DNA of 64,000 nt from an uncultured Candidatus Saccharibacteria bacterium. GTDB lineage: Bacteria; Patescibacteriota; Minisyncoccia; UBA6257; 2-01-FULL-56-20. The translations under genes were made by a program, and so were the position numbers. Location: the NCBI GenBank assembly GCA_964456235.1, contig CAYWDX010000002.1:142061-206060 (forward strand). The letters run 5' to 3'. Below the pieces are notes generated by a model, which searched no databases, was not told the origin of the DNA, and worked only from the letters and a program-made list of their open reading frames with translations. This document shows, in pieces, positions 5,859 to 51,592 of this stretch (its first letter is position 1; each line of letters starts with the position of its first letter).

Positions 5859-6971
5859 TCACATGTTCGTAAAATCGTTCGCGTTATTATCGGTATCGAC
5901 AATCACCCCACTTTCAATTTTGCGCTGGAGGACCTGGCCAGCTGTCGGATTGGCTGCGACCGGCGCTCCTTCAAAAAATTGTCCCGCTCCTTCGCCCCAG
6001 GCAACCGCGTCGATTACGACACCTGACGCATCCATAAGCGCGGCGCTATTGTTGGCCGCAAGTGTCGCGCTGCTGGTTATATTGGCGCCTATTGAATCGC
6101 CGAATCCTCCTGCAGAATTTGCCCAGGTGAAATAGGCGCCGGGTGCGACCAGACTCTCGCTCGGGAAAACTTTTATCGAATACTCTGTCCCACTGCTTGA
6201 GCGCTTCCGCAATTTCCAACCGCTCACGTCCACCGGCATCGGCGTCGGGTTAAAGATTTTTATGAAATCGTTCGCGCTCGATGCGCCGGCAATCTGAACT
6301 CCCGCAATTACGACGTGCGCGGGCGCTGCTAGTCCTGCCGTTGGTGCCGAGGTTGATGTCGGTTGTGCTGGAAGTTGCATTGGAGGTTCTGGCGCCGGCG
6401 CCGACGGCTCCGGCAGCTCTGGCGGCGACTCGCTCGGTGTTGACGAGGGCGCCGAAGAAGGATCAGCGTCGAGTTGAACCTCGATGGTGCTTGTCGCGCT
6501 TGTTGTCGCGATTGTGGTCGCAGTTGTCGTGGTCATCACAATCACCGGAACAACCATCACGCTCGAAGATGGCATCGGCGGCTCCACCGGCAAAGCCAGC
6601 TTCGAAGTTGAAGCTGGTGGCGGATTAGGAATAGTACTCGTGATCAGATGTGGCGCCGGGGCAGGTCCAGGAGGAAGCGTCACTACTTTCGCCACGGATT
6701 TCGCCGGTGCCACAGTGGTTGTTTCTGCAGTTGTTTCTGCAGTCGTTTCTCTATAAATATTAGTGCGGGCTGCGATGTCGGCAGCATATCCCCCACTTCC
6801 GGGAGCGACTGCCTCCTGCCATGATTGCGCAATAACATCTTTGATGCGTATCGGCAGCTGCATCGCCTGCGCCGGAAACAGCGCGAACGCCGCCGCGACG
6901 CAAGCCGCAGAAATAGAGCTGGTCAAAATCAGCCGTCGTCTTCGCTTTTTCCTCACTTCTTCCAAAAACAT
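5859..6971 (-). CDS. secreted protein with Pro/Thr-rich linker and C-terminal lamin-tail (LTD) domain
   Basis: N-terminal signal-like segment and a low-complexity TTAETTAETTT/PAPAP linker. C-terminus has IKIFNPTPMPVDVSGWKL...VIDAVAWG, typical of the LTD fold. Confidence 0.55.
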   Translation of the reverse strand: MFLEEVRKKRRRRLILTSSISAACVAAAFALFPAQAMQLPIRIKDVIAQSWQEAVAPGSGGYAADIAARTNIYRETTAETTAETTTVAPAKSVAKVVTLPPGPAPAPHLITSTIPNPPPASTSKLALPVEPPMPSSSVMVVPVIVMTTTTATTIATTSATSTIEVQLDADPSSAPSSTPSESPPELPEPSAPAPEPPMQLPAQPTSTSAPTAGLAAPAHVVIAGVQIAGASSANDFIKIFNPTPMPVDVSGWKLRKRSSSGTEYSIKVFPSESLVAPGAYFTWANSAGGFGDSIGANITSSATLAANNSAALMDASGVVIDAVAWGEGAGQFFEGAPVAANPTAGQVLQRKIESGVIVDTDNNANDFTNM

Positions 6972-7078: not shown

Positions 7079-7726
7079 ATGCGGCCCACGAACAGCCAGC
7101 TAAAAAAGACGCTCATTATCCTTACGGCGATTGCGCTCGCCCTCGGCGTGATTGTTGTGCTGGTCGTTTTCTATCCGGGTGATGTCGGCATCGGCGGCGT
7201 CGGCAGCTTTGTGCAAAATATAACCCCATCTGGATCTTCGAACGGATCGAATCAAACAATGGCTCCCTCGACGAGTGCAAGTATTCCCACGAGCTCGCAA
7301 AATATTGCTGCGGGCACGGGCGCGAGTTTTGTGAGCACATTTTCTGCGCCCTATCCGGTCAATTGGAATGATGCGCGCGAGCAGTTCTCGGTGATCGGTG
7401 CATCCTTCAGAGAAAACCAACTCACGCTGACGCTTTCAGTTAAGACGAGCGGGATCCCCGAGTGCGTGCCGCTCGATGTGCGCCTCGTGAAAAACGAGAG
7501 TGGTGATTTGCAAGCGCCCGACGCGCCGCAGTTTAGTTTTCCGGATACCGGAAGCTGCACCGGCGGCGCCAATGAAACTTATAGCGAGCCCGTTACGTTT
7601 ACGATCGACTCGTCCCTCGCCGGTCCTTATTTGCTGACGACCGGCGGTACAGCGAATTTATTTTTCACGGCGGCGACGTCTTCGGCTGGCGGTATTAATG
7701 TGGCGCTGCCGTCGACTTCTGGGTAG
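7079..7726 (+). CDS. hypothetical membrane-anchored secreted protein
   Basis: 215 aa with an N-terminal TM helix (LIILTAIALALGVIVVLVVF) followed by a Ser/Thr-rich region. No recognisable family. Confidence 0.45.
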   Translation: MRPTNSQLKKTLIILTAIALALGVIVVLVVFYPGDVGIGGVGSFVQNITPSGSSNGSNQTMAPSTSASIPTSSQNIAAGTGASFVSTFSAPYPVNWNDAREQFSVIGASFRENQLTLTLSVKTSGIPECVPLDVRLVKNESGDLQAPDAPQFSFPDTGSCTGGANETYSEPVTFTIDSSLAGPYLLTTGGTANLFFTAATSSAGGINVALPSTSG

Positions 7727-7759
7727 GCGCGCAATTTGCTGTGGCCGCGCGGCCGGCGG

Positions 7760-7788
7760 TTGAATTCGCGCGCTTGCTTTGCTAAACT
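7760..7788 (+). promoter_or_regulatory. candidate sigma70-type promoter for the intron-containing tRNA
   Basis: TTGAAT – 17 nt – TAAACT, ending ~11 nt before tRNA position +1. Confidence 0.3.
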
Positions 7789-7799
7789 CCATAACGTAT

Positions 7800-8119
7800 T
7801 CCGGCGTAGCTCAATGGTAGAGCGGCTCCCTGTGGATACGCAGCTTCCCGAAGTAATTCGGGTTGAAAATCGAGGTGAATTGCTGGAAGCCTAATGCGGT
7901 AATGCGAAGGTAATCAGCAGCCAAGCCCAGTCGTGATTTCAAGATCACGACTGCGGAAGGTTCAGAGACTATCCCGTAAGGGAGTACTCCGGATTGCATA
8001 AAGTGATCCGGCGGAAGCGCCTCGCCCCTGCAACAGGGTGAAGATATAGTCCACTCCTAATGGAAACATTGGGGTTACGTGTAAGGAGATGGTTCCAGGT
8101 TCGAGTCCTGGCGCCGGAG
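7800..8119 (+). tRNA. tRNA gene interrupted by a group I intron in the anticodon loop. Anticodon is UGU (Thr) if splicing is after U33, or GUU (Asn) if after position 35
   Basis: 5' half TCCGGCG-TA-GCTC-AATGGTA-GAGC-G-GCTCC-CU gives acceptor, D arm and 5' anticodon stem. 3' half GGAGA-TGGTT-CCAGG-TTCGAGT-CCTGG-CGCCGGA-G gives 3' anticodon stem, T arm and acceptor, with perfect 7-bp acceptor pairing. The two halves are separated by ~250 nt. Confidence 0.7.
7832..8079 (+). ncRNA. group I (IC3-like) self-splicing intron inside the tRNA
   Basis: Intron begins GUG like the Azoarcus/Anabaena tRNA introns. It contains a GNRA-capped hairpin (CCCGAA-GUAA-UUCGGG), a P4–P6-like GGUGAAUUGCUGGAAGCCUAAUGCGG (cf. 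Azoarcus GGUGUCAAAUUCGGCGAAACCUAAGCGCC), a 10-bp hairpin CAGUCGUGAU...AUCACGACUG, and a P7-like GUUCAGAGACUAUCCCG (cf. Azoarcus GUAGAGACUAGACGG). It ends in G. No internal ORF. Confidence 0.65.
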
Positions 8120-8123
8120 CAGC

Positions 8124-8157
8124 AAAAAAACATCTGTCCAAGGCAGATGTTTTTTAT
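8124..8157 (+). terminator. intrinsic terminator after the tRNA (A-run/hairpin/T-run, potentially bidirectional)
   Basis: AAAAAAA-CATCTG-tccaagg-CAGATG-TTTTTT. Confidence 0.6.
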
Positions 8158-8169
8158 TACCATTGAATT

Positions 8170-8481
8170 ATGAGCAAATTGAGAAAATATCTTAGCGGAG
8201 TGATCCTCGGTAATCTGGCTATACCATCGAATATTAAGTATGGAACAATGATCAGTAAACGAGACGGTGTCGAAGTCATTGAAGAACAAGAAGCGAAAAT
8301 TGAAGCCTGGGCAGGTGGACTTACGGGCGGCGTTGCAGAGGGAGGTGGCGGGAAAAGACGAGTACAACTTTGGTTAAAAGATAAGAAACTACATTGGCAT
8401 TGTACTGGTAATCCAAAAGATCACGATATTTTTTGTAAGCACTGCATTGCGGTCACCCTTTTTTTAAGAAAAAACCATTAA
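8170..8481 (+). CDS. hypothetical small protein in a low-GC island; C-terminal HxHC...CxHC zinc-finger-like motif
   Basis: 103-aa ORF in a conspicuously AT-rich ~570-bp segment. It carries LHWHCTGNPKDHDIFCKHC and has no clear RBS. Confidence 0.3.
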   Translation: MSKLRKYLSGVILGNLAIPSNIKYGTMISKRDGVEVIEEQEAKIEAWAGGLTGGVAEGGGGKRRVQLWLKDKKLHWHCTGNPKDHDIFCKHCIAVTLFLRKNH

Positions 8482-8731: not shown

Positions 8732-10261
8732 ATGAAAGGAAAATTGACAAGGATTGCTATTGCTTCCGCGCTGGTGATCGCCTTCGCCTTGCCCACGTCT
8801 TCAGTAATCGTGGCCATGGCTGCATCGAAATCGCACGGCAGTAACAGCAACGAAAGTAACGGTAACGAAAACGAGCACGGGGTGAGTATAGGCGCAAACG
8901 TACGAACGTCTGTCAGCGCCAATAGCAACTCCATAACCGTCAGCGATGACGAGGACACGAACGCTACCGACACAGAAGACGGCAGTGGAGAATGTCCCGG
9001 ATTCGTTCCGCCCGGCCACCTGATCGCTCCAGGTTGGTTGAAGCATCATGGTGACGAAGAGCCGACGGTTCCGGACTGTGAAGATTTGCCGCCGGGCATC
9101 GGCATGAGGTTTGGAACTTCAACGCACAATGGCGATCATGAGCACCAATTCACGCTCAGCTCCGTGAGCGCCAGCGCTGCGACGAGTACGGCGACGATCA
9201 CTTGGAACACGAACAAGCCCGCCAGTTCGCAGGTCTTCTACGGATTGACGGCGGCTCACGGTTCTAGTACGAGCGTCGACTCGGCTCTCGTAACCTCGCA
9301 TTCAGAAATGCTCTCGGGTCTCACGCCGAACACGACCTACCACTTCCAGGTAAAATCGGCTGACGCGGATGGCGATGTCGTCATCTCCGCGGATGCCACC
9401 TTCACGACAGCTGCTTTGCCGGCGGATACCATCCCGCCGACGGTGTCGATAACTTCACCGCTGAGCAGCACGACGGTTTCATCCACGATTACCGTAAGCG
9501 CGACGTCTACCGACAATGTTGGCGTGGCGAACGTGCAATTCTTGCTGGACGGCGCTAACCTCGGATCTGCGGTGACGAGCACGCCTTACTCGATTTTGTG
9601 GGACACGAAAACCGCGACGAACGGCGCTCACACCCTGACGGCGATTGCGCACGACACGTCGAGCAACGTCGCTACATCGAGCGCGATCAGCGTGATCGTT
9701 GACAACGGCGCTCCGGTCATCTCGAGCACGACCGCCGCTGCCGTGACAAGCACGGTGACCATCTCCTGGATGACGGATGAACCCGCAAACTCCCAAGTCT
9801 TCTACGGCTTGACGACGGCATATGGATCCACAACCCCGATTGATGCGACGCTCGTGACCTCACACTCGGTCACCATCGCAGGCCTCACCCCGGGCACCCT
9901 GTATCACTTCGAAGTGCTTTCGATGGACGGCGTCGGCAACCTGGCGACCTCGAGCGATAACAGCTTCAGTACGGCGGCTCTGCCGGCAATCTTGTCGGCA
10001 ACCTCGACTGCGGCGACGAGCACCGCTACCGTCAGCTGGACTACGAATGTGTCCACGACCGGAACCGTGTACTACTCCACTTCGACGCCGGTCAACGCGA
10101 GCACGTCGGCTTCGGTAAGCGACGCCTCCTCCACGACCGCCCACGCGGTTGCCCTCACCGGACTGAATAGTAGCAGCACCTACTTCTTCGTCGTCAAAGC
10201 GACGGACAGCTTCGGTGATACGATAACCTCAAGCGAGGGATCGTTCACGACTGGGCCGTAA
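8732..10261 (+). CDS. secreted protein with three FN3-like repeats and bacterial Ig-like domain(s)
   Basis: Signal peptide. Three repeats of ...TITWNTNKPASSQVFYGLT...TTYHFQVKS... (FN3-like, as in purple acid phosphatase N-terminal domains). One Ig-like unit DNVGVANVQFLLDGANLGSAVTSTPYSILWDT...NGAHTLTAIAHDTSSN. Confidence 0.6.
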   Translation: MKGKLTRIAIASALVIAFALPTSSVIVAMAASKSHGSNSNESNGNENEHGVSIGANVRTSVSANSNSITVSDDEDTNATDTEDGSGECPGFVPPGHLIAPGWLKHHGDEEPTVPDCEDLPPGIGMRFGTSTHNGDHEHQFTLSSVSASAATSTATITWNTNKPASSQVFYGLTAAHGSSTSVDSALVTSHSEMLSGLTPNTTYHFQVKSADADGDVVISADATFTTAALPADTIPPTVSITSPLSSTTVSSTITVSATSTDNVGVANVQFLLDGANLGSAVTSTPYSILWDTKTATNGAHTLTAIAHDTSSNVATSSAISVIVDNGAPVISSTTAAAVTSTVTISWMTDEPANSQVFYGLTTAYGSTTPIDATLVTSHSVTIAGLTPGTLYHFEVLSMDGVGNLATSSDNSFSTAALPAILSATSTAATSTATVSWTTNVSTTGTVYYSTSTPVNASTSASVSDASSTTAHAVALTGLNSSSTYFFVVKATDSFGDTITSSEGSFTTGP

Positions 10262-10578: not shown

Positions 10579-13446
10579 TTATTTGAACGTCGTGATTTCG
10601 CTTAAGAAAATCGTGGCGCCGCCCGTATTCGCCGTGCCGGCCGCAGAATAAGCGCCGGTCGCGGAAACCGACTTGTACTCTACAAATGCGGACGATCCTT
10701 CGTTCCCGAGCGAAGTCCAGCCAGAGCTCCCGCCCCATGCGGCATTGCCGGTGTAATATTGCGTCGCAAACGCAATTAAGAGCTCGTTTGCTTGCGAAGT
10801 GGCAGATGTAGGCCCAACGCTCCAATTCGTTCCGGCATCATAATTTTGGAGATGCGAAGTAAACTGATCGAACGGCGCAGAAACCGACGCGCCCGAAATT
10901 TCTACCACAAAAATGGATGTGGCGACATAGTTCGTCGTGACGGTAAAGTTTTGGACCCCGGCTTGGGCATTCGTGCGGTAATACACGCCGGCGAAATCGC
11001 GGCCGTTGACGGTGTCATACGCGCTACCTCCTAGGGTGTATGTGCTTCCTTTATTATCAGAGAACGAAACCGGGGTTTGAGAAAGTGAATTCAATAAAAC
11101 AACGACCAAATCGCCCGCCTGCGTAGGTGACGGCAAAGAAACGTTGAAGCTTCCGCCATTGCCGGATCCATGTGCGCTCTGCACAACCGACGGCCCCGAT
11201 CCGGAAGGCGGCGAGGAAACGGCATTATTCACCGTCACCGAAACATTACTCGCCGTGGCTGAATTCCCTGCCGCATCGGTAGCGACCGCTGAAATGGTAT
11301 GCGAGCCATTCGCAACGCCGGTGGTATCCCAACTGTACGTGAATGGCGCGGAGGTCAGCGCGCTTCCAATATTCGCCCCGTCCAATTTGAATTGAACGAG
11401 CACCACCCCCACATTGTCTGAAGCGCTCGCGGAGAGCGTGATCGTTCCCTGCACGGTAGCGCCGCTCGACGGTCCAGTCACCGATATCGTGGGCGGAGTC
11501 GTGTCCGGAGCCGGAGTTGCCGGTGGGGGCGTTGGGCTCGAAACATTTCCGCCGCTTCCTAATTCGACGATGTAAGCGTCGGTTTTAGTTCCGTCAGAGG
11601 TACAGTTGCGCCAATTCGAAGTGAACAACACTTTCGTGAAATCGCGGTTTGGCGTAGCATGCGGCTCATTGAAATATTGGCCCGCGCGGCACACCTGATC
11701 GTGCGCGATGCGATACACGATATTACTGTTGTCCATCTTGAGCGCAAAAATTTCACTGCCCATCGGCACCTGCGGCGACATGTCCACGGCATTCTCGTTA
11801 TAAGAAGAGCCGAGCGCATACCCGTTCATCGGATTGTTCACGCCGATATTCGCGCGCCCGCTGATATGCCACTGCCCGCTGAAGTAAGCACTGTCGGGCA
11901 TCAAGTTTTGAATCACTCCGGCAGAACTCGGGCACCCGAGCGCGAGACTAGGATCAAAAGCGTATGCTGTCGTGCGGCGATAATCATCGTGCGTGGCGCC
12001 ATCCGCAACACAGAAACCGCTATAGATGACTTCCTTACCATTGGCGAGACGCCCCATGTCAGCGTGGGTTCCATCGTCTTTGGATAGAAGTCCGCCCGCA
12101 CCAAAACCGCTCCACGGAGAGACGCGAGAAATTCTTGCGCCAGTCACCGCATCATATTCCTCGGTGCCGGTGTGCGTGTAATTGCCCGGAGTGTTCCACG
12201 CCACCTCAACATAATCGCCGTCGGGACTAATGCACGCTTGAGCCGGTCGTTTATTTTCCGGCGCGTTGGTGTTCACGAGATCCCCTGGCGTCGTAAGTTT
12301 ATGGAACCAGAAATAATGATTTGGCGTCGTAAGATCAAACACGCCAAATCCCCACGGCGCACCCGTCTGGCCGTACACAATTTTCGATGCAAGTTTTGTG
12401 CTCGCGTCATCGGTATTGCAATAGACATATGGCTTAATGGTGAGATTGTTTGCAACGAGATCCAACGTATTCCCCTGCGTATCGGTCAGGGTATTGAAGG
12501 TGCCGATAGTCGCGATAGCATCGTTATGGCAAACATCCAGCGTTCTAATCTGCCGCGCATAGGTGTAGTAAAAAATGCATCGATCACGATTGCTCCATAT
12601 CGGCCCAAGCTGGTCGACGCCATCGCCGGCGATATTGATGGTCCGTATGTAGTTATAAGGATCATTCCCGTTCATCAGCACCAAGCCGCCGCCCTGGAAA
12701 TAATTAAGGATCATATAACTGCCATCAAGATTCCATGCCTGGTTCGGGGCATAGACCGGGAAATATCCGTTTGCGGGCATTCCGGCCTGCGACGTGATCC
12801 GCTTAAGCTGGGTGTGGAAAATAGGATCGGTGTAAATCGTGCCGGCAGTTCCATCATAGACGGCCGGTTTCGAATCCGCCGGACTTGCGATCGCCGAACA
12901 GCCATCGTAAGGCGTAGTGCCTGCGGTCGGTGAAGAATTATAACCACTCGCCGTGCGCTGACACATTAATAAATTCGCGAACTGGGCCGGCGTGCCTGCG
13001 GGGGCCGGCGTAGGAGTTGGCGTTGGTGTCGGGGTGGGGCTTGGCGGCGGTATGGGAACGGGCACGGGCGTGGGAGTGGGAACCGGATAAATAGGATTGG
13101 GAGTGGGAGTAGGCGTGGGAGTGGAAATACTGCCAGGGGCTCCGGGGGTTCCGATACTCGGATTGTTTGCACTTGTCGACGTTGATGTCACCGTGGAAAC
13201 GGGCTGATGCGACAACAGCGCGACAAATTGCGCCTGAAGTTGGGCCAGGTACTGCGTGAGCAATATAATGAGCTGCTGCATGAGCGTCACCAAAAGCTGC
13301 TGCTGGGCGATCGTTGAAGTTACTGTCGCAGCCAAAAAATCGCTCCCGATTTGGCTCAATGGAGCATGGGGAACGAAAAATAAAAGAACGAGCAGAAAGA
13401 GCACGACGATACCGACAAAAATCAATTTCCGAAAACGTCCAAACAT
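10579..13446 (-). CDS. large (955 aa) membrane-anchored secreted protein: N-terminal TM, coiled/Q-rich segment, TP-repeat linker, large globular domain, Ig-like domain, C-terminal domain
   Basis: N-terminus MFGRFRKLIFVGIVVLFLLVLLFF, a (TP)n/PxP linker, and the Ig-like motif DNVGVVLVQFKLDGANIGSALTSAPFTYSWDT...NGSHTISAVATDAAGN shared with the neighbouring gene. Confidence 0.6.
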   Translation of the reverse strand: MFGRFRKLIFVGIVVLFLLVLLFFVPHAPLSQIGSDFLAATVTSTIAQQQLLVTLMQQLIILLTQYLAQLQAQFVALLSHQPVSTVTSTSTSANNPSIGTPGAPGSISTPTPTPTPNPIYPVPTPTPVPVPIPPPSPTPTPTPTPTPAPAGTPAQFANLLMCQRTASGYNSSPTAGTTPYDGCSAIASPADSKPAVYDGTAGTIYTDPIFHTQLKRITSQAGMPANGYFPVYAPNQAWNLDGSYMILNYFQGGGLVLMNGNDPYNYIRTINIAGDGVDQLGPIWSNRDRCIFYYTYARQIRTLDVCHNDAIATIGTFNTLTDTQGNTLDLVANNLTIKPYVYCNTDDASTKLASKIVYGQTGAPWGFGVFDLTTPNHYFWFHKLTTPGDLVNTNAPENKRPAQACISPDGDYVEVAWNTPGNYTHTGTEEYDAVTGARISRVSPWSGFGAGGLLSKDDGTHADMGRLANGKEVIYSGFCVADGATHDDYRRTTAYAFDPSLALGCPSSAGVIQNLMPDSAYFSGQWHISGRANIGVNNPMNGYALGSSYNENAVDMSPQVPMGSEIFALKMDNSNIVYRIAHDQVCRAGQYFNEPHATPNRDFTKVLFTSNWRNCTSDGTKTDAYIVELGSGGNVSSPTPPPATPAPDTTPPTISVTGPSSGATVQGTITLSASASDNVGVVLVQFKLDGANIGSALTSAPFTYSWDTTGVANGSHTISAVATDAAGNSATASNVSVTVNNAVSSPPSGSGPSVVQSAHGSGNGGSFNVSLPSPTQAGDLVVVLLNSLSQTPVSFSDNKGSTYTLGGSAYDTVNGRDFAGVYYRTNAQAGVQNFTVTTNYVATSIFVVEISGASVSAPFDQFTSHLQNYDAGTNWSVGPTSATSQANELLIAFATQYYTGNAAWGGSSGWTSLGNEGSSAFVEYKSVSATGAYSAAGTANTGGATIFLSEITTFK

Positions 13447-33326: not shown

Positions 33327-33397
33327 CGGGCCGTAGTATACCGGCAGTACGAGCGCATGGGGTGCGTTTAGACCGGGTTCGATTCCCGGCGGCCCGA
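33327..33397 (+). tRNA. tRNA-Pro (anticodon GGG)
   Basis: CGGGCCG-TA-GTAT-ACCGGCA-GTAC-G-AGCGC-AUGGGGU-GCGTT-TAGA-CCGGG-TTCGATT-CCCGG-CGGCCCG-A. Canonical cloverleaf with a 7-bp acceptor, TΨC loop and anticodon loop AU-GGG-GU. No encoded CCA. Confidence 0.8.
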
Positions 33398-33402
33398 CTC
33401 AC

Positions 33403-50356: not shown

Positions 50357-51592
50357 CTAGGTAAGGCTTTCGAACCCCTCGAGTGCCGGCGCCTTGCCGT
50401 GTTCCCGAACTTTCTCAAGCGCTTTCGCTTCAATCTGGCGGATGCGCTCACGCGTGACGCCGAACGCCTTCCCTACTTCTTCAAGCGTGTGGCTAATACC
50501 GTCCTCAAGGCCGAACCGCATCTTTAAAATCTGTTGTTCACGCTCGGTGAGATCGATCATAATTTCCTTAATGAGGTCGCGGAGCATGGCGCGGGCGGTG
50601 AGCTGGGACGGCGTCGCGTTGCGTTCGTCCGGAATAAAGTCGGAAAGCGTGGAATCTTCCTCGTCGCCGATCGGCGTTTCAATCGAAAGCACTTCTTGCG
50701 AAATTTTTTGGATGTGGCGGACTTTATCAACGTCGATGCCCATCTCGGCGGCCACCTCTTCGGCGAGCGGATCGCGCCCAAGTTCCTGGATAAGCTGCCG
50801 GCGCACCTGCGTGTACTTGGAGATCGTTTCTACCATGTGGACCGGGATGCGGACGGTGCGCGATTGGTCGGCGAGCGCGCGCGTGATCGCCTGGCGAATC
50901 CACCACGTCGCGTAAGTGCTGAATTTAAAACCACGGCGATAATCAAACTTTTCAACCGCGCGCGAAAGGCCGATGTTCCCTTCCTGGATCAAATCCAAAA
51001 TGGAAAGATGCGGCGTGCGGTTCACATATCGCTTCGCAATCGAGACGACGAGGCGCAGGTTCGCCTTCATCAATCTTTGACGGGCCTCTTCGTCGCCCTT
51101 CTCCGCACGCTTCGCGAGCTCGCGCTCTTCGTCTTTTGAAAGCAGCGGCGTTTTGCCGATTTCTTTCAGGTACATCTGCACGGCGTCGGGCACGTCGCCT
51201 TCAAATGCGAGCGAGTCGTCAACGCTCGCGCCGTTTTCATCTTTTGAGAAATCAATGAGGGCGCTCGTCTCGATCACCTTGATGCCCGCCTTCTCGAGGC
51301 GGTCATAAATCTCGTCGAGCAGTTCAACGCTGTCCTCAATCTTGGGGAAATAATAGAGGATCTCGTTATCAGTCACAAAACCGCGCGGCCGCCCCCGGTC
51401 AATGAGCTCGTTGATCTCGCCGTTATGCTTCGCGAGATCTTTTTCAAACTTGGTAAGCGGCTTTTTCTTGGCATGTTTCTTGGGCGTCCGGCGGGCCGGG
51501 CGGCTTGATTTCGAGGCCTTTTTGAAATGTTTCTTAGGCGGACGCTTCTTAACGCCGCCTTTTTTATGAGGTTTGCGAGGCATAGCCATCAA
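50357..51592 (-). CDS. rpoD: RNA polymerase sigma-70 factor
   Basis: Region 2 [40 protein letters not shown], region 4 ...[24 protein letters not shown]. Lys-rich N-terminal tail. Confidence 0.9.

Follow-up and report, generated by a model that had tools for sequence, protein, structure and literature searches.

Group I introns that interrupt the anticodon loop of bacterial tRNAs include the tRNA-Leu(UAA) intron of cyanobacteria and plastids, inserted between positions 34 and 35, and the Azoarcus tRNA-Ile(CAU) intron, inserted 3' of the anticodon; both belong to subgroup IC3. Here we analyze a 64-kb stretch of contig CAYWDX010000002.1 (hereafter the window), in which a tRNA gene split in the same loop occupies positions 7800-8119 of the forward strand. 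The closest described systems are the group I introns that Patescibacteria carry at the 35/36 site of tRNA-Asn(GUU), reported by Nakagawa, Amikura, Omae and Suzuki in mSystems (Nakagawa et al. 2026, PMC13011429; preprint 10.1101/2025.07.03.662931). Group I introns occur in approximately 40% of the complete Patescibacteria genomes, where they interrupt tRNAs most often at tRNA-Asn 35/36; an earlier note on this DNA, which considered such introns a rarity beyond cyanobacteria and a few proteobacteria, is out of date on this point. The intron boundary was fixed by these authors using BLAST against intron-less homologues; ARAGORN and tFind often shift the intron by two bases and relabel the gene Thr(UGU) or Ala(UGC) with an insertion at 33/34. 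Precise self-splicing was obtained in vitro for the introns of GCA_016700035.1 (Asn, at 35/36) and GCA_001029755.1 (Asp), exon ligation in the validated homologue was blocked by changing omega-G to C, and HNH genes were found in four Patescibacteria tRNA-Asn introns (Nakagawa et al. 2026). We put at about 93% the probability that the window carries, at 7800-8119, a tRNA-Asn(GUU) gene interrupted between U35 and U36 by an endonuclease-free group I ribozyme of 248 nt belonging to this Patescibacteria family.

The window intron shares with the published ones the host gene, the insertion site, a P1 of the form CUGU|...GCAG and an omega-G followed by UAA, together with the core blocks GGUGAAUU, AGCCAAG, AAGGU.CAGAGACUA, AGCGCC and AUAGUCC. 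The absence of an endonuclease gene and the ARAGORN miscall as Thr(UGU) at 33/34 are common to them as well, as is, in all probability, the setting in a reduced genome of the candidate phyla radiation (CPR) type, and its 248 nt compare with a mean of 257 nt for all bacterial tRNA introns surveyed (Nakagawa et al. 2026). Ten sequences, among them the window intron and introns from the published Table S3 such as the validated GCA_016700035.1 intron, were aligned (alignment A2). In this alignment 75 columns, which take in all core junctions, are invariant, among them the motif CAGAGACUA, which the validated intron retains; the window intron is 58-66% identical to the introns taken from that table, and aligns with the validated one through every core element at 64% identity. 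The exact intron was not found in the part of the supplementary tables that was searched, and no close copy occurs among the matches listed in our scans, the best being locus L143 with 73% identity over 300 nt. The window intron is thus a further, moderately divergent (58-66%) example of a family described and validated in 2025-2026, and no discovery.

The likeness to the classical bacterial cases is more general. The window intron would, like the tRNA-Leu and Azoarcus tRNA-Ile introns, be of the self-splicing group I type in the anticodon loop of a bacterial tRNA and would follow the same two-step mechanism initiated by guanosine; it is likewise compact and devoid of any open reading frame (ORF), and its P2 and P9 are capped by GNRA tetraloops. 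It differs from them in tRNA and in insertion site, as well as in the region following P7, since in those introns P7 runs directly into P3' without P7.1 and P7.2; according to the assignment of Nakagawa et al. (2026), they also belong to a different subgroup. The phage introns of subgroup IA, such as T4 td and Twort orf142-I2, share the extra P7.1/P7.2 hairpins; unlike the window intron they reside in phage protein-coding genes, are often larger and carry endonuclease ORFs.

The split gene extends exactly from tRNA position 1 at 7800 to the discriminator G73 at 8119 on the plus strand. Its 5' half, TCCGGCG-TA-GCTC-AATGGTA-GAGC-G-GCTCC-CT..., consists of the acceptor strand UCCGGCG, the D arm and GCUCC, which forms the 5' side of the anticodon stem; C32 and U33 come next (U33 = 7831). 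Its 3' half, ...AA-GGAGA-TGGTT-CCAGG-TTCGAGT-CCTGG-CGCCGGA-G, provides the 3' anticodon stem GGAGA, the variable loop UGGUU, the T arm CCAGG-UUCGAGU-CCUGG and the acceptor strand CGCCGGA. Removal of 248 nt brings the two halves together into a clean cloverleaf of 72/73 nt. CCA is not encoded (the bases after G73 are CAG, CAGCAAAAAAA); many homologues encode it. The scan of the region with RF00028, the Rfam group I intron model, which the earlier note had suggested as a check, returned a match at 7783-8073 spanning the full model (1-253) with 75.2 bits and an E-value of 2.8e-17, the gathering score being 50 bits. This score places the split gene far beyond chance, and the earlier reading, in which some 250 nt of group I intron divide a tRNA in its anticodon loop and leave recognizable 5' and 3' halves on either side, is borne out.

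A helix model (P1-P9 with P7.1 and P7.2) was written explicitly on the window sequence and confronted with alignment A1, which groups ten introns of the window's sequence type. The features of the gene and of its intron are the following:

7800-7833, plus strand: 5' exon of tRNA-Asn(GUU), with the 5' acceptor strand, D arm, 5' anticodon stem, C32, U33, G34 and U35; its 24-nt 5' half recurs in at least 121 metagenomic tRNA-Asn genes.
7834-8081, plus strand: group I intron of 248 nt, 51% G+C, without internal ORF, between tRNA positions 35 and 36; RF00028 match, junction rules kept in 57/57 homologues.
7830-7843, plus strand: P1, formed by exon CUGU (7830-7833) and the internal guide GCAG (7840-7843) around the loop GGAUAC; read from the sequence, four pairs invariant in 10/10.
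7847-7862, plus strand: P2 hairpin CCCGAA-GUAA-UUCGGG (7847-7852 / 7857-7862); 100% of cells paired, compensatory changes in 5/6 pairs.
7871-7877, plus strand: P3 5' strand CGAGGUG, partner at 8018-8024; 90% of cells paired, compensatory changes in three pairs.
7881-7919, plus strand: P4 (7881-7886 / 7914-7919) around P5, preceded by J3/4 AAU (7878-7880); P4 100% paired, with four covarying pairs.
7890-7910, plus strand: P5 (7890-7892 / 7908-7910), within P4; 86% paired.
7926-7956, plus strand: P6 (7926-7927 / 7955-7956); the outer P6 pairs covary.
7928-7953, plus strand: P6a, a perfect 10-bp hairpin (7928-7937 / 7944-7953); inner part variable in length and aligned poorly by MAFFT.
7967-7972, plus strand: P7 5' strand GACUAU, partner AUAGUC at 8046-8051, forming a pseudoknot with P3; 5/6 pairs invariant in 10/10 sequences.
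7973-7982, plus strand: P7.1 hairpin CCC-GUAA-GGG (7973-7975 / 7980-7982); also present in L081, L101, L117, L143 and GCA_016699245.1.
7989-8011, plus strand: P7.2 hairpin CCGGAU-(11 nt)-AUCCGG (7989-7994 / 8006-8011); hairpin kept in L081, L101, L117 and L143 despite entirely different stems.
8018-8024, plus strand: P3 3' strand CGCCUCG; AGCGCC invariant in alignment A2.
8026-8038, plus strand: P8 hairpin CCCUG-CAA-CAGGG (8026-8030 / 8034-8038); length varies across homologues.
8039-8051, plus strand: J8/7 UGAAGAU and P7 3' strand AUAGUC; AUAGUCC invariant, in agreement with the Rfam consensus UgAAGAUAUAGUC.
8056-8073, plus strand: P9 hairpin CCUAAUG-GAAA-CAUUGGG (8056-8062 / 8067-8073); 90.5% of cells paired, 6/7 pairs covary.
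8081, plus strand: omega-G, final nucleotide of the intron, at the 3' splice site; in 57/57 homologues listed, UAA is immediately preceded by G.
8082-8119, plus strand: 3' exon, with U36, A37, A38, the 3' anticodon stem, variable loop, T arm, 3' acceptor strand and G73; the joined exons match L153, L163 and L209 over 72 nt.

In alignment A1, 84.8% of the cells pair according to the model; shuffling lowers this share to 70.3% and sliding the partners to 33-51%. Changes on both sides affect 37 pairs, and the observed values were reached by none of 500 shuffles. Covariation is found mostly in P2, P3, P4 and P9, and P1 is invariant. MAFFT aligns the helices of variable length, P6a, P8 and P7.2, imperfectly, and their scores are lower; the presence of the P7.1/P7.2 insert in few sequences makes covariation statistics weak for both of its helices. 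The invariant J6/7 AAGGU.CAGA lies directly 5' of the P7 5' strand. As far as comparative sequence analysis can tell, a P1-P9 ribozyme fold with a P3/P7 pseudoknot is supported by covariation. The structural hallmarks listed in the earlier note find their place in this model: a GNRA-capped hairpin (there are three, with loops GUAA at 7853-7856 in P2, GUAA at 7976-7979 in P7.1 and GAAA at 8063-8066 in P9); a P4-P6-like stretch GGUGAAUUGCUGGAAGCC, which corresponds to the 3' part of the P3 5' strand, J3/4, P4, J4/5 and P5 (7874-7899); a P7-like stretch GUUCAGAGACUAUCCCG, which runs from J6/7 through the P7 5' strand into P7.1 (7960-7976); and a long perfect hairpin, which is P6a. The ORFs overlapping the intron had been dismissed there as artefacts, in keeping with our finding that the antisense 132-aa ORF at 7969-8367 matches no family.

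Two junctions situated 2 bases apart are compatible with the sequence, each of them following a U, ending in G and yielding a clean cloverleaf: an intron at 7832-8079 leaves the loop CU-UGU-AA (Thr), an intron at 7834-8081 the loop CU-GUU-AA (Asn). The earlier note had rightly flagged this ambiguity between tRNA-Thr and tRNA-Asn, which can now be resolved in favor of tRNA-Asn(GUU) by four independent lines of evidence. The first is the P1 pairing. A U.G wobble in P1 marks the 5' splice site of group I introns, and U7833.G7840 is the sole such pair in P1; it is kept, with all four P1 pairs, in the ten aligned homologues (10/10), and GCAG occurs at most 60 nt from the 5' splice site in 43 of 57 homologues listed. 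The second line is provided by the junction rules. In 57 split genes, consisting of the window gene and 56 loci listed from species-representative genomes, the 35/36 junction shows U at -1, omega-G and a 3' exon starting with UAA in every case (57/57). The third line concerns the body of the tRNA: in annotated phage records, the genes that best matched the full length of the anticodon-masked (NNN) tRNA were tRNA-Asn genes; a BLAST search of the same masked tRNA against E. coli genomes returned just matches with E=6 to tRNA-Arg and tRNA-Thr and was uninformative. The last and decisive line comes from intron-less orthologues. When metagenomes were scanned for the exact 24-nt 5' half of the window gene, the genes recovered, at least 121, comprised 109 intron-less genes with the CTGTTAA loop, 12 genes interrupted after CTGT and none with a Thr loop. 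Splicing at 35/36 would give a product that matches three of the intron-less metagenomic genes (L153, L163 and L209) at all 72 nt. On this comparative evidence we regard the ambiguity as settled: the gene should be read as tRNA-Asn(GUU) with its intron at 35/36, and not as tRNA-Thr(UGU). The spliced junction predicted at 35/36 is the 21-mer GGCTCCCTGTTAAGGAGATGG and the ligated exons would contain GGCUCCCUGUUAAGGAGAUGG, compared with CCCTGTGGATAC and TTACGTGTAAGG at the unspliced junctions. The comparison with such intron-less 'empty sites', here an exact match over 72 nt, constitutes a quick and decisive method for fixing the junction.

The covarying fold, the rules at the splice sites and the identity of the predicted product to intron-less genes are established here, and the following pathway can be proposed. 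Transcription would produce a precursor of ~330 nt ending at a hairpin at 8125-8155. The intron would fold into a P3-P9 core containing the P3/P7 pseudoknot, and its guide GCAG (7840-7843) would pair with the exon CUGU to form P1 with the U7833.G7840 wobble. A free guanosine nucleotide bound in P7 would attack the bond following U7833; the 3'-OH of U35 would then attack the bond following omega-G8081, joining the exons into the loop C-U-G-U-U-A-A. Ordinary processing of the 5' and 3' ends and CCA addition would complete the tRNA.

Several points weigh against this account. Catalysis by the window intron is argued by analogy with a same-family homologue, 64% identical, that was spliced in vitro. 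Alignment A1 is a small sample (n=10), and the slid-partner control is biased towards the model, since the latter was derived from the window intron, itself one of the aligned sequences. P5 has only 3 bp and a poorly structured loop. P10, sought by eye between UAAGG of the 3' exon and the P1 loop GGAUAC, gave no convincing pairing; of the P1 and P10 pairings put forward in the earlier note as guides to the splice sites, P1 marks the 5' site through its U.G pair at 7833 and P10 remains unconvincing. The anticodon stem contains a G27.A43 mismatch, though the identical intron-less genes share it. The scans of both collections, genomes and metagenomes, sample the matches and are no census, so that their counts are lower bounds. 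As regards the role of the gene, the count of tRNA-Asn copies covers the 64-kb window, the rest of the genome lying outside it. These points notwithstanding, the window intron is in all likelihood functional.

The assignment to a subgroup deserves closer consideration. In the classification of Michel and Westhof, the P7.1 and P7.2 hairpins located between P7 and P3' define subgroup IA. The window intron contains at this place, between the P7 5' strand and P3', a 45-nt insert with two hairpins, which Rfam aligns as a 44-nt insertion. The same two-hairpin arrangement is found in L081, L101, L117, L143 and GCA_016699245.1 (Paceibacteria), with entirely different stems that each pair; in L117, for instance, the CCC/GGG stem of P7.1 is replaced by GGGC/GCCC. 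P7.2 is flanked by conserved GUAC and GGAAG linkers. In the validated Saccharimonadia intron, a single long hairpin stands where the window intron has P7.1 and P7.2. None of the Patescibacteria tRNA introns was placed in IC by Nakagawa et al. (2026), who assigned 25 of the 28 introns at 35/36 to IA, and their Table S5 labels tRNA-Asn 35/36 introns with the same core IA1 and IA2. Subgroup IA is therefore the assignment supported by this hallmark and by the published labels. The earlier note had proposed instead subgroup IC3, as in the cyanobacterial tRNA-Leu and Azoarcus tRNA-Ile introns. This view finds some ground in the compactness of the intron, in the GNRA loops on P2 and P9, in the proximity of P3-P4, J6/7-P7 and J8/7 to the Rfam consensus (GAAUUGC.GGAA, GGUAAUC.GCAGCCAA, AAGGUUCA.AGACUA and UGAAGAUAUAGUC) and in four introns of the same sequence type (L028, L080, L104 and L065) that lack P7.1/P7.2, their P7 running straight into P3'. 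Set against the insert of the window intron, in which P7 does not lead directly into P3', and against the published labels, membership in IC3 appears unlikely.

Two sequence types of introns share the tRNA-Asn 35/36 site: a majority type (GGGAUAACGGUGAA...GCGCCGUAGAGACUAGAUACC), in which P7 runs straight into P3', and the type of the window intron (GGUGAAUUGCUGGAAGCC...GGUUCAGAGACUAU). Within the latter, the insert between P7 and P3' contains no hairpin in L028, L080, L104 and L065; one hairpin in L002, L111 and the introns from Saccharimonadia in Table S3; and two hairpins in the window intron, L081, L101, L117, L143 and GCA_016699245.1. The element that defines IA is thus polymorphic, with zero, one or two hairpins on one core, as the window case illustrates. 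The subgroup boundary looks soft in the tRNA-Asn 35/36 family, and the impression of an IC3 intron is understandable.

A further proposal concerns the role of the intron: the split gene would be the only tRNA-Asn gene of the organism, and the intron would be kept as a link between the supply of tRNA-Asn and the guanosine-nucleotide or Mg2+ state of the cell. If so, all asparagine decoding in a reduced genome would depend on a ribozyme that requires a guanosine nucleotide and that would replace, at the RNA level, regulatory proteins that have been lost. The idea of a ribozyme acting as regulator was raised just as a speculation by Nakagawa et al. (2026), and for the window intron we consider it quite improbable.

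Conversely, the intron could be a decayed, non-splicing relic and the tRNA a pseudogene, with an intact tRNA-Asn gene elsewhere in the genome. Such a situation would be compatible with the examination of only 64 kb of a contig that measures at least 207 kb, with an activity argued from a homologue, and with the absence from the window intron of the homing endonuclease carried by its relative L143. Decay has nevertheless left no trace: all core helices are intact, the 75 columns invariant in the family, validated member included, are all kept, the Rfam score is well above threshold, and no second tRNA-Asn was found within the 64-kb window. Exons 100% identical to intact intron-less genes are themselves an indication that no decay has occurred, and we hold the relic to be very unlikely compared with a splicing intron.

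A tRNA-Thr(UGU) gene with an intron at 7832-8079, between positions 33 and 34, is extremely unlikely. It is the call made by ARAGORN in intron mode (option -i), which reports one split gene at 7800-8120 with a 248-nt intron after position 33, Thr(tgt) i(33,248); the junction follows U7831, ends at G8079 and leaves a clean cloverleaf. In a crude global comparison with the intron-less tRNAs of related loci, Thr(GGU) also ranked highest, at 0.75; this comparison could not discriminate, since the set held no tRNA-Asn, and only its statistic for position 1 is usable. That statistic goes the other way: the first base is G in 40 of 42 intron-less tRNA-Thr genes of related loci, and the window gene has U1-A72 and G73. 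Moreover, U7831 pairs with A7842 in P1, the only U.G being at 7833; omega-G at the 33/34 junction is present in 47 of the 57 split genes listed and missing in the other 10; and none of the 109 intron-less orthologues listed has a Thr loop or matches the 33/34 product. The same two-base miscall has been documented and disproved by sequencing of the spliced product (Nakagawa et al. 2026). The resemblance to the Azoarcus intron that the earlier note had seen in an intron beginning with GUG disappears with this junction: the intron inserted at 35/36 begins with GGAUAC, a GUG start exists only under the wrong 33/34 junction, and the comparison carries no weight.

Chance similarity, two unrelated tRNA halves and a protein-coding region were likewise rejected, given respectively the RF00028 E-value of 2.8e-17, the identity of the joined exons to natural genes and the lack of family matches.

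With tRNA-Asn(GUU) as the preferred identity, the consequences are mostly for annotation. ARAGORN in default mode, run on the whole window, did not report the split gene, its sole call being tRNA-Pro(GGG) at 33327-33398, and the Rfam tRNA model did not see it either in the scan of the window. The earlier statement that standard pipelines would miss this gene entirely consequently holds for these two tools and not for ARAGORN in intron mode, which sees it under the wrong name of tRNA-Thr(UGU). The genome would seem to be devoid of tRNA-Asn by default annotation, and to possess an extra tRNA-Thr(UGU) by intron-aware ARAGORN. Errors of either kind bias, for CPR genomes, the estimates of completeness as well as what is inferred on codon usage. 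The chief value of the present case is its correct annotation, and no new question is opened by it. As a side observation, the tRNA-Pro(GGG) gene, located at 33327-33397 by the Rfam tRNA model, scores 48.2 bits for a gathering score of 29 and was nonetheless omitted by the whole-window Rfam scan in 'gathering' mode; absence in that mode is thus no evidence of absence.

The window holds ordinary chromosomal genes: gap, rpoD, dnaG, alaS, valS, tsaD, a gene for an nrdJ-like reductase and rpsM. A Logan contig (run SRR12313479) has the gap region in common with it and ends inside the tRNA; its neighbouring genes are typical of CPR bacteria, encoding a DUF5671 protein and a fused epimerase/transketolase-N protein. 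The best matches of the window rpoD (57-65%) and dnaG (~40-44%) belong to loci titled Nealsonbacteria, Saccharibacteria, Parcubacteria and similar, the 57-65% of rpoD applying to over 20 loci with Patescibacteria titles, in which the gene adjoins tRNA-Asn. Parcubacteria bacterium Licking1014_17 has tRNA exons 97% identical to those of the window gene, and the window proteins are singletons at 90% identity. These gene comparisons suggest that the host is probably a member of the Patescibacteria resembling Paceibacteria. In the more than 20 Patescibacteria loci, rpoD, often accompanied by dnaG, lies directly beside tRNA-Asn; in the window, rpoD and dnaG are 42 kb away from it (50360-51592, minus strand, against 7800-8119), so that a rearrangement in this lineage is implied. 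Large proteins, predicted to be of surface type, are encoded on both sides of the tRNA, at 5859-6971 (minus strand), 8732-10261 (plus strand) and 10579-13446 (minus strand), with Lamin-tail, Big_7, fibronectin-III and purple-acid-phosphatase-N domains.

Two candidate signals frame the gene:

7760-7788, plus strand: TTGAAT-17 nt-TAAACT, weakly promoter-like, with its end 11 nt upstream of tRNA position 1; noted by eye, with 8/12 consensus positions, below the threshold of the scan.
8125-8155, plus strand: A-tract, 14-bp hairpin and U-tract, starting 6 nt after the tRNA; dG -15.6 kcal/mol and z -4.6 by folding.

The folding prediction suggests that the hairpin is probably an intrinsic terminator, and the A7/hairpin/U6 arrangement after the tRNA looks like a bidirectional one; TTGAAT-17-TAAACT could, by inference, act as a promoter. 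A scan of 7500-8400 for consensus promoters and terminators called nothing, the terminator-like hairpin having perhaps been missed because its stem runs through the A/U tracts.

The relatives of the window intron give some indications about its mobility. L143 (1219-1768 of metagenome contig Ga0315280_10090881) is a 550-nt tRNA-Asn 35/36 intron whose ribozyme part is 73% identical to the window intron; the exon sequence of the anticodon arm is identical in both, and the ribozyme architecture is the same (P2 with its GUAA loop, P7.1, P7.2 and P9). Its P1 loop holds a 107-aa ORF with a CxxC...HH...CANCH pattern, the last codons of which overlap the GCAGC guide and P2, and which reaches 21.2 bits against Pfam HNH, a borderline value for a gathering score of 21.4. 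No intron-encoded homing endonuclease was found in the window intron, where no ORF of at least 30 aa lies wholly within 7834-8081 and all overlapping ORFs extend outside; with a P1 loop of 6 nt and no ORF, the window copy cannot home by itself. The presence of the intron varies among relatives, as indicated by an upstream 215-aa ORF (7079-7726, without family match) that is syntenic with tRNA-Asn both in L208, which has an intron (52%), and in L132, which is intron-less (42%).

The family extends further. Nine of the 56 split tRNA-Asn loci listed are titled Omnitrophota and two Planctomycetales, lineages that Nakagawa et al. (2026), whose survey was restricted to complete genomes, did not list for 35/36 introns. 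In several loci titled 'uncultured Gammaproteobacteria' or 'Bdellovibrionales', the rpoD neighbours are as near to that of the window as those of Patescibacteria loci, and these titles may be unreliable. Lastly, a pattern combining the J8/7 motif with a T-loop, applied to genome contigs, also recovered split genes for tRNA-Asp(GUC), at least 21, and for tRNA-Tyr(GUA), at least 12, besides a few calls of 'Ser'.

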